In this document: piece by piece, positions 18,000 to 19,935 of the stretch | Position numbering within the stretch: the first letter of the stretch is position 1 | Layout of the letters: every line of letters begins with the position of its first letter | DNA from: Octopus sinensis | Taxonomy: Eukaryota | Assembly (NCBI RefSeq): GCF_006345805.1 | Contig: NC_043003.1 | Span: forward strand, 45,756,001-45,820,000 | Direction of reading: 5' to 3' | Length of the DNA stretch: 64,000 nt | Position numbers and translations under genes: made by a program | The notes under the pieces: model-generated | What the model saw: the letters and a program-made list of their open reading frames with translations, nothing else | Told to the model about the DNA's origin: nothing | The model's database searches: none

Positions 18000-18119
18000 A
18001 TATATATATATATAGCAGTCAAGAATGCTTATTTCTATCAAAGTGGGACTCCGGGCACGACAAACCCTGTAATTCACATATGCAAAACAGAAGGAATAGA
18101 TATAGAAAACGAAGTCTGG

Positions 18120-18246
18120 TGGTTATCTGTGAACATCATGTTTCTGGATTATAAACATATTGAATATATATTTCATATATATTTTTGATATATATTTCAT
18201 ATACATTGCATATATATTTCACATCCTTCTTCAGCACAGCTTTCCA
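18120..18246 (-). ncRNA. Type I hammerhead ribozyme motif (inverted copy)
   Basis: Reverse complement of the motif at 18877-19003. Confidence 0.7.
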
Positions 18247-18876
18247 TTGAAATAGATTTATCATAGATTTATCAAATGCTACGTACCTCAAACCTTCTGA
18301 CCATGCGACATCAAAATATTTGAAGAAAGTGAGCAAAAGCTAAACCTACATAGACGTTTGAATTCGTAAATCTTCCCTCCAAAATTTTGCCATGCGCACT
18401 ACAAAAATAGTTCCATAGGGGTAGGAACCATTGGGTTGTCGTAAGGGAGTGAAAAATCCAATTAGTAATATAATAATAAGATTAAATAATTTTACAACCT
18501 GTTGCCTGTCCCTTTTTCTTATATACAATATATATACTGAACTTTACAGAAGTTCCTGTCGGTAATCGGCTATATTTACATACCGAATTCTACCAGTAAA
18601 TAATTGTGGTTTTTTTAAAAACCTTTATAGAAATTATTTACTCTTATTATTATATTACTAATTGGATTTTTCACTCCCTTACGACAACCCAATGGTTCCT
18701 ACCCCTATGGAACTATTTTTGTAGTGCGCATGACAAAATTTTGGAGGGAAGATTTACGAATTCAAACGTCTATGTAGGTTTAGCTTTTGCTCACTTTCTT
18801 CAAATATTTTGATGTCGCATGGTCAGAAGGTTTGAGGTACGTAGCATTTGATAAATCTATGATAAATCTATTTCAA

Positions 18877-19003
18877 TGGAAAGCTGTGCTGAAGAAGGAT
18901 GTGAAATATATATGCAATGTATATGAAATATATATCAAAAATATATATGAAATATATATTCAATATGTTTATAATCCAGAAACATGATGTTCACAGATAA
19001 CCA
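18877..19003 (+). ncRNA. Type I hammerhead ribozyme motif with long stem-loop II
   Basis: Stem I CTGTG(18884-88)/CACAG(18992-96); core CTGAAGA (18889-95); stem II GGAT/ATCC around 73 AT-rich nt; GAAA (18979-82); stem III ACA-tga-TGT; cleavage triplet GUU (18989-91). Confidence 0.75.
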
Positions 19004-19514
19004 CCAGACTTCGTTTTCTATATCTATTCCTTCTGTTTTGCATATGTGAATTACAGGGATTGTCGTGCCCGGAGTCCCACTTTGATAGAAATAAGCATTC
19101 TTGACTGCTATTTCTATTTTTTCGGTATGCGGTCAAGCAACCTGTTGCCTGTCCCTTTTTCTTATATACAATATATTACTGAACTTTACAGAAGTTCCTG
19201 TCGGTAATCGGCTATATTTACATACCGAATTCTACCAGTAAATAATTGTGGTTTTTTAAAAACCTTTATAGAAATTATTACTCTTATTATTATATTACTA
19301 ATTGGATTTTTCACTCCTTACGACAACCCAATGGTTCCTACCCCTATGGAACTATTTTTGTAGTGCGCATGACAAAATTTTGGAGGGAAGATTTACGAAT
19401 TCAAACGTCTATGTAGGTTTAGCTTTTGCTCACTTTCTTCAAATATTTTGATGTCGCATGGTCAGAAGGTTTGAGGTACGTAGCATTGATAAATCTATGA
19501 TAAATCTATTTCAA

Positions 19515-19641
19515 TGGAAAGCTGTGCTGAAGAAGGATGTGAAATATATATGCAATGTATATGAAATATATATCAAAAATATATATGAAATATATATTCA
19601 ATATGTTTATAATCCAGAAACATGATGTTCACAGATAACCA
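19515..19641 (+). ncRNA. Type I hammerhead ribozyme motif (second direct copy)
   Basis: Identical motif: CTGAAGA 19527-33, GAAA 19617-20, GUU 19627-29, CACAG 19630-34. Confidence 0.75.
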
Positions 19642-19935
19642 CCAGACTTCGTTTTCTATATCTATTCCTTCTGTTTTGCATATGTGAATTACAGGGATTG
19701 TCGTGCCCGGAGTCCCACTTTGATAGAAATAAGCATTCTTGACTGCTATTTCTATTTTTTCGGTATGCGGTCAAGCAACCTGTTGCCTGTCCCTTTTTCT
19801 TATATACAATATATATACTGAACTTTACAGAAGTTCCTGCCGGTAATCGGCTATATTTACATACCGAATTCTACCAGTAAATAATTGTGGTTTTTTAAAA
19901 ACCTTTATAGAAATTATTTACTCTTATTATATATA

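Follow-up and report, generated by a model that had tools for sequence, protein, structure and literature searches.

A (TA)n microsatellite in a 64,000-nucleotide stretch of Octopus sinensis DNA (contig NC_043003.1; the whole stretch analysed is referred to as the window) hosts a repeat of ∼640 bp: one copy is inverted, and a further two and a quarter follow in direct orientation. The non-coding unit carries a hammerhead ribozyme motif, and the insertion has the anatomy of Penelope-like elements (PLEs): an inverted 5′ copy, a partial tandem, a microsatellite target and a fixed internal 3′ end. Judged by its sequence, the repeat is likely to be a new family of animal non-LTR retrozymes that would be copied by Penelope-type enzymes. 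The locus itself is probably a young insertion of an abundant non-coding hammerhead tandem element, which would borrow a Penelope-like RT/GIY-YIG protein and would have been copied from an uncleaved, longer-than-unit RNA primed on both (TA)n strands. A single locus alters no general picture.

Layout of the locus and composition of the unit

The locus consists of the following features.

18000–18014 (no strand): left (TA)n target tract; its last three letters are common to the inverted copy
18012–18492 (− strand): inverted copy of 481 nt corresponding to unit positions 18631–19111, head to head with the direct array
18495–19137 (+ strand): direct unit 1, 643 bp
19138–19775 (+ strand): direct unit 2, 638 bp, identical to unit 1 except for five single-base deletions in runs
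19776–19930 (+ strand): partial unit 3, 155 bp; it terminates at the 3′ end of the element, 301 nt past the predicted cleavage site
19928–19979 (no strand): right (TA)n target tract

The inverted copy is the reverse complement of 18631–19111 with three substitutions in 481 nt relative to unit 1, from which it is separated by two letters (18493–18494) that match neither side. No target-site duplication was readable within the (TA)n. The unit has a GC content of 32.6% and, when closed on itself, a longest stop-free frame of 68 aa; no coding trace was detected in it (the best tblastn match of 150 Penelope-type proteins had an E value of 0.017), and ARAGORN returned no tRNA genes. An LTR-like layout was not seen at the locus, and the RT plus GIY-YIG ORF that lies between the pseudo-LTRs of an autonomous Penelope-like element is absent from it. 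The inverted copy, unit 1 and unit 2 all cross the 3′-end point and reach the hammerhead ∼235 nt later with no ORF between; without unit 2 the insert would still be more than one unit long and would still have no room for an ORF. An ORF-less unit of ∼640 bp in two full and one partial direct copies, with an inverted copy and (TA)n bounds, had been proposed in a preliminary description of this DNA, and this layout was confirmed.

The window resembles an animal genome rich in microsatellites, and a SINE in it may point to an octopus-like source. The left flank of the locus (17683–17999, − strand), which is cut at the TA tract, resembles the C-terminal end of a LINE ORF; Pfam gave nothing relevant for this interval. 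A Mariner-like DNA transposon remnant (19980–20848, − strand) adjoins the right TA tract; its terminal inverted repeats, judged by eye, are imperfect, and HTH matches within it (20363–20677) were below the cut-off. An abundant SINE-like repeat of ∼200 nt, which also forms a tandem array with a period of 184/400 bp, was observed at 42243–43345, with relatives at 1125–2029, 9477–9693, 22276–22493, 24299–24642 and 62099–62534. A stop-free frame at 27368–27739 (− strand) contains three C2H2-like zinc-finger motifs, and a 299-bp pair in opposite orientation (44608–44904 and 61356–61654; 98% identity, 17 kb apart) represents a young dispersed repeat. Ordinary sequence is also duplicated head to tail at 8690–10854 (offset 1068, 97%) and 31736–33086 (offset 674, 92%); these young duplications are either real or assembly products.

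The hammerhead motif

Each of the three long copies contains one motif of type I layout, with a stem I of 5 bp, a stem II closed by 4 bp and a stem III of 3 bp. Positions (C3, A9, G12, H17 etc.) follow the hammerhead numbering.

18127–18239 (− strand): hammerhead motif in the inverted copy; C3 at 18234, H17 at 18132
18884–18996 (+ strand): hammerhead motif 1; C3 at 18889, H17 at 18991
18884–18888/18992–18996: motif 1, stem I
18889–18895: motif 1, core
18896: motif 1, extra A
18897–18977: motif 1, stem II
18978: motif 1, extra A
18979: motif 1, G12
18982–18990: motif 1, palindromic stem III, followed by H17 at 18991
19522–19634 (+ strand): hammerhead motif 2; C3 at 19527, H17 at 19629
18595–18642 (+ strand): hairpin B with a stem of 11 bp, immediately 5′ of the fixed 3′ end of the family (pair probabilities 0.79–1.0 in unit context)

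All core letters and the three stems are intact in the three copies at the locus. One extra A follows A9 (18896) and a second lies between C11.1 and G12 (18978); stem II comprises 81 nt, is AT-rich and is made of 11-nt repeats; stem III is a near-perfect palindrome and the cleavage triplet ends in U. A type I descriptor, written after the motif had been seen, was run over both strands of the 64 kb and found three sites, one per long copy, and no other. It gave no matches in 5000 dinucleotide shuffles of the unit (one in 5000 when stem I was relaxed to 4 bp) and none in 30 shuffled windows. The complete type I hammerhead claimed earlier for the inverted and both full direct copies is thus borne out, and H17 was placed by the descriptor, too, at the predicted cleavage positions (after 18991 and 19629). 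The check proposed in the preliminary description, a search with the Rfam hammerhead models, came out negative: there were no matches at the gathering score and no hammerhead among the eight at E values up to 10. The microRNA and histone stem-loop matches found at that level were far below gathering and were rejected, being due to the inverted repeat and the AT content.

The free fold of 18870–19015 is already the hammerhead (z −2.37), and constraining it to the catalytic layout adds 0.9 kcal/mol. Within the unit the stems had pair probabilities of 0.59–0.65 (stem I), 0.88–0.99 (stem II) and 0.43–0.65 (stem III); in the whole array that of stem I was ∼0.3. An extension of stem I by TGG/CCA had also been proposed; it was recovered in the isolated motif (0.60–0.75) but fell to about 0.2 in the whole array. 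The palindromic segment 18982–18991 does not fold alone (0.0) but forms 8 bp with a second copy (−6.6 kcal/mol), and two motif copies cofold in the swapped form at −68.0 versus 2 × −28.7 kcal/mol. The stems are also kept in the monomer folded as a circle (pair probabilities of 0.58–0.63, 0.88–0.99 and 0.42–0.64 for stems I, II and III, respectively). A further hairpin, A (19100–19137), brackets both inversion points and was considered as a stall signal; it folds locally but has a probability of 0 in unit or circle context and was rejected.

A donor-like site at ∼18837 and a pyrimidine-rich acceptor-like site ending at ∼19055 bracket the hammerhead in every copy (18836–19055, + strand). Penelope elements have introns near the pseudo-LTR. 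No skip matching these two sites was present among the joints of the public contigs.

The family in public sequence runs

The family was assessed in public runs, all of which consist of contigs. Parts of the unit were found in 20 of the 24 runs listed (11 studies); half or more of the unit's words were present in seven, with a best share of 0.65. Low shares, such as those of X20 (0.06) and of four runs at 0.00–0.03, were not counted as evidence. For four of the 24 (X1, X10, X12 and X14) contigs were placed on one permuted unit (18760–19400) at ≥80%, namely 971 of 40.6 M read in X1, 209 of 14.2 M in X10, ten of 0.93 M in X12 and two of 0.47 M in X14; the last two runs are RNA by guess. Variant contigs, together with other flanks at the same 3′ end, indicate that the unit belongs to an abundant, dispersed family; the contigs give no copy number.

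An X14 contig (18809–19295) and a loose end from X12 leave the unit at ∼19295 into (TA)n, 5 nt away from the end at this locus (19290 equivalent), which gives a common 3′ end at three loci. The abundance of the family, this fixed end in (TA)n, the inverted 5′ copy and the lack of an ORF uphold the earlier assignment to a non-autonomous hammerhead-bearing retroelement. Opposite-strand joints at 18976/19126 (X12) and 19025/19278 (X1) represent inversions at other loci, one side of each lying 11–12 nt and 6 nt, respectively, from the two junction points of the present locus. The arms of the X12 inversion overlap, the inverted one reaching from 18976 at least as far as 19173 and the direct one beginning at 19126. 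Simple twin priming on one linear unit would not produce such an overlap. Among the 21 of 160 loose ends listed there was no second locus ending at 19111, nor any coding-like sequence by reading, untranslated. Diverged relatives (records 18 and 26) continue past the 3′-end point into a next unit; no close copy among those listed bridges it with 31 letters on each side. Contig depth is minimal just past this point (19310–19353), so copies of more than one unit are probably a minority.

In X14 record 25 all 11 substitutions and four indels lie at 19019 or later (the chance of sparing the 113-nt motif is 0.019), and the two deepest X10 contigs listed over the motif, in which the core is represented by both its halves, have differences nowhere but outside the motif. 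Among the 40 of 76 substitutions listed one falls in the motif (18967 G>A, which would turn a predicted G–U into an A–U pair), and among the 12 of 23 indels listed none does. This conservation across copies favours selection on the hammerhead only weakly, because the quiet zone of low variation runs from 18760 to 19002 and is wider than the motif; the low variation may reflect mosaicism of subfamilies instead. Sister subfamilies in X1 and X12 have the unit's layout, but the flank of stem I is different and stem II is some 57 nt shorter; they keep the 5′ half of the core, the only half visible, and in one X12 relative this half is mutated.

The best contig from the RNA-guess runs (X14, 1564 nt) contains one unit followed by unique flank, which is a read-through form; contigs reveal neither RNA ends nor circles. 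An X12 joint that 'goes back 635' was discarded as evidence of a circle, as it merely spans the arbitrary edge of the permuted reference. A scan with the motif pattern gave no matches in viral contigs or prokaryote genomes; its only match, in metagenome contigs (L001), covers 31 nt at 90% with the rest of the motif absent, and was attributed to chance.

A decayed Penelope-like element in the window

One feature of the window bears on the enzyme that may be borrowed.

50640–52020 (− strand): decayed Penelope-like element with RT, Cys-rich linker and GIY-YIG, interrupted by stops and frameshifts

A stop-free piece of 75 aa from this element had 474 relatives at E values up to 0.001 in an exhaustive search and a weak GIY-YIG match below the cut-off. 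When eight relatives were scanned, RT and GIY-YIG were found in five and GIY-YIG only in three. All nine relatives of at least 600 aa align to 50720–51958 and have the CX2-5CxxC linker, which marks the Neptune and Nematis types and has been associated with the choice of (TA)n targets (Craig et al., 2021, PMC8557442). Pfam gave no families for any of the three whole frames, a word-indexed homology search gave no match, and the PDB matches were unrelated Kazal-type noise. The preliminary description had cited this element as a decayed member of the class that would re-copy the unit. A decayed RT/GIY-YIG element is indeed present, the only Penelope remnant of the window; as a partner of the unit it lacks DNA similarity (best 19 nt, E value 0.41). 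By its sequence the remnant is of the same class as the likely helper; it demonstrates that class in the genome and nothing more.

Proposed insertion mechanism

All cDNA segments at the locus read through the predicted cleavage site, which implies a template RNA that was uncleaved or religated. In the mechanism that we propose a tandem locus would be transcribed. The hammerhead, as modelled, would have little activity in the monomer; most cutting would take place in dimers formed through the palindromic stem III, and much of the RNA would stay uncut. Both (TA)n strands would be cut by a Penelope-type protein, the most plausible candidate being the Neptune type with its preference for (TA)n. 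One target end would prime reverse transcription inside the RNA, in an AU-rich segment directly downstream of hairpin B and about 300 nt past the cleavage site, and would give rise to the direct array, as the fixed end at three loci suggests. The other target end would prime further 5′ on the template by a 3-nt match and would yield the inverted copy. This second step is drawn from the geometry of the junction at one locus. There, position 19111 is the last of the inverted copy, which matches the TA tract over 3 nt, whereas the first position of the direct array is equivalent to 19138; on a tandem template this leaves a gap of 26 nt. Head-to-head joining of the two cDNAs, with 26 template bases lost and two letters added, would constitute twin priming (described in PMC2246262). 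On the present sequences it is not the sole route to inversions, since only one locus supports it and the X12 inversion has overlapping arms.

Several of these steps have precedents. Penelope-like insertions with an inverted 5′ copy, partial tandems and a (TA)n bias have been described (Craig et al., 2021, PMC8557442), and one Penelope-like protein cuts both target strands at AT-rich DNA in vitro and extends them; reverse transcription in that system starts internally, downstream of the hammerhead, with uncut RNA as the main substrate (Frangieh et al., 2024, PMC11167929).

The template could instead be supplied by a full retrozyme cycle, in which paired hammerheads would release a 638-nt monomer, a host ligase would circularise it and Penelope RT would copy it for more than one round into a tandem. 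Retrozymes of coral, mussel and axolotl have been shown as far as the circle (Cervera & De la Peña, 2020, PMC7229834), the monomer here folds well (z −5.73, only 20 shuffles) with stems I–III predicted to persist in circular form, and reading through the cleavage site would be natural on a religated circle. Each cDNA moreover stops 18–26 nt from the start of the other and the whole insert amounts to three units plus about 19 nt, as from a doubly primed circle. A single circle, however, should give identical copies, and units 1 and 2 share two private substitutions (18559/19201 and 19059/19697) that neither the partial unit nor the inverted copy has and that most public contigs lack too. Hairpin B, within the 3′ arm of which the inverted copy terminates, also explains where that copy stops, and the best RNA-guess contig reads through into unique flank. 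We regard the full cycle as unlikely. Since units 1 and 2 share these substitutions and differ by run deletions without a single substitution, unit 2 probably arose later as a local duplicate of unit 1 or is an assembly product; alternatively, a varied array may have been transcribed into a linear template. Release of a monomer requires two direct hammerheads, and no part of the array is less secure than unit 2. In a more far-reaching version, large, abundant retrozymes whose hammerhead works despite its novel shape would be twin-primed on circular RNA, each cDNA ending where the other began; the inverted copy stops 18–19 nt before the 3′-end position, and the direct array runs 26 nt beyond the start of the other cDNA. 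This is very improbable in our estimate. If it were true, the genome would hold a direct footprint of a circular template of Penelope RT, and the formation of Penelope-type inverted-plus-tandem insertions would be explained.

Two other readings concern what the repeat is. It might be the truncated pseudo-LTR end of an autonomous Penelope-like element, its unit doubled locally or by the assembler, with no independent tandem family behind it. The motif is of the PLE pseudo-LTR type (Cervera & De la Peña, 2014, PMC4209133), unit 2 has error-like deletions, the window contains the two other young head-to-tail duplications, and the depth minimum past the 3′-end point suggests few copies longer than a unit. 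We nevertheless consider this improbable: the inverted copy and unit 1 each run from the 3′-end point to a hammerhead without an intervening ORF, the diverged relatives also cross that point, and the loose ends listed offer nothing coding-like. The hammerhead might alternatively be a dead relic in a satellite-like unit that needs no ribozyme to move or amplify. The additional A preceding G12, which may impair catalysis, the 81-nt AT-rich stem II of 11-nt repeats, the U in the last position of the cleavage triplet and the failure of Rfam would all fit such a relic, and Poseidon insertion in vitro was unaffected by hammerhead mutants (Frangieh et al., 2024, PMC11167929). Against it stand the core letters and three stems, intact in the three copies here and in other copies, and a sister subfamily that keeps the 5′ half of the core with a different flank and a shorter stem II (one mutated X12 relative aside); a dead relic is accordingly judged unlikely too. 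Insertion from an uncleaved RNA of a tandem hammerhead element remains the reading that we prefer.

Comparison with known systems

Animal non-LTR retrozymes are tandem non-coding repeats with type I hammerheads, and their circles have been found in coral, mussel and axolotl (Cervera & De la Peña, 2020, PMC7229834). They have been tied to Penelope pseudo-LTRs as PLE derivatives (Li, Clavereau & Pollet, 2026, bioRxiv 10.64898/2026.07.22.740005), and in frog retrozyme dimers cleavage was reported for one of nine tested and for none of the other eight (bioRxiv 2026.07.22.740005). The present unit resembles them in being a non-coding, low-GC tandem unit (32.6%; the class is under 45–50%) with a type I hammerhead per full unit, in its many dispersed copies and in the presence of Penelope-like elements in the same genome. 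The definition given by Li et al. calls for two consecutive units each with a motif, and units 1 and 2, as assembled, are such a pair. The unit length of 638–643 bp is above the 150–450 bp of PMC7229834 and inside the 51–972 bp of bioRxiv 2026.07.22.740005. The canonical motif of 2020 has a 6-bp stem I, a 4-bp stem II and a loop 1–loop 2 contact (PMC7229834) and does not describe the unit's motif, with its 5-bp stem I, 81-nt stem II and two extra core-adjacent bases; the 2026 definition admits minimal motifs too (bioRxiv 2026.07.22.740005). Unlike those retrozymes, the ribozyme here is of the PLE variant type, and the locus is known from sequence, its cleavage and circle being putative only.

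The PLE pseudo-LTR hammerhead is described as having base 9a, a short stem I (4–5 bp), G10.1–C11.1 and a palindromic stem III (Cervera & De la Peña, 2014, PMC4209133). The unit's motif shares the 5-bp stem I, the unpaired base between 9 and 10.1, the G10.1–C11.1 pair and a small palindromic stem III suited to dimers; it differs in the 81 nt of stem II, compared with 6–8 bp there, in the extra A between 11.1 and G12 and in belonging to an ORF-less tandem. The extra A is absent from the published variants compared (PMC4209133, PMC3088659), and the supplementary alignments of PMC4209133 and PMC11167929 may hold long-stem variants; natural core insertions with low or retained activity do exist (PMC3088659). 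A search of the literature on hammerheads, Penelope and octopus found no paper on this unit's family. The species listed in the PMC7229834 supplement may be more. As for cleavage as a dimer, PLE hammerheads that behave in this way were reportedly described by Lunse and coworkers in 2017.

Endonuclease-bearing PLE insertions (Craig et al., 2021, PMC8557442; Frangieh et al., 2024, PMC11167929) share with this locus a partial tandem with an adjacent inverted 5′ copy, a microsatellite target and a fixed internal RT start downstream of the hammerhead. In contrast to them, the locus has no RT/GIY-YIG ORF, its two ends differ by about 180 nt rather than by the usual tail of 30–40 nt, and its inverted copy and direct array are immediate neighbours on the template. 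L1 twin priming (Ostertag & Kazazian, 2001, as described in PMC2246262) is alike in that each of two target ends primes its own region of a single RNA, which leaves an inversion with a small junction loss; the present locus is unlike it in lacking a poly(A) tail and a readable target-site duplication, in its internal first priming site and in the enzyme class. No paper on twin priming in PLEs was found in the literature on twin priming and Penelope inversions.

The family thus likely enlarges the animal retrozymes by a large and abundant type with a hammerhead shape that is missed by standard models, and such elements are probably undercounted for that reason; a period above 500 and an 81-nt stem II are easy to miss, as TRF run at period 500 and Rfam, which both overlooked this repeat, illustrate. 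Young copies with fixed ends are numerous in the family, and their junctions could therefore be used to test two open points in the literature, namely how the tandem and inverted insertions of Penelope form and whether circles are real templates.
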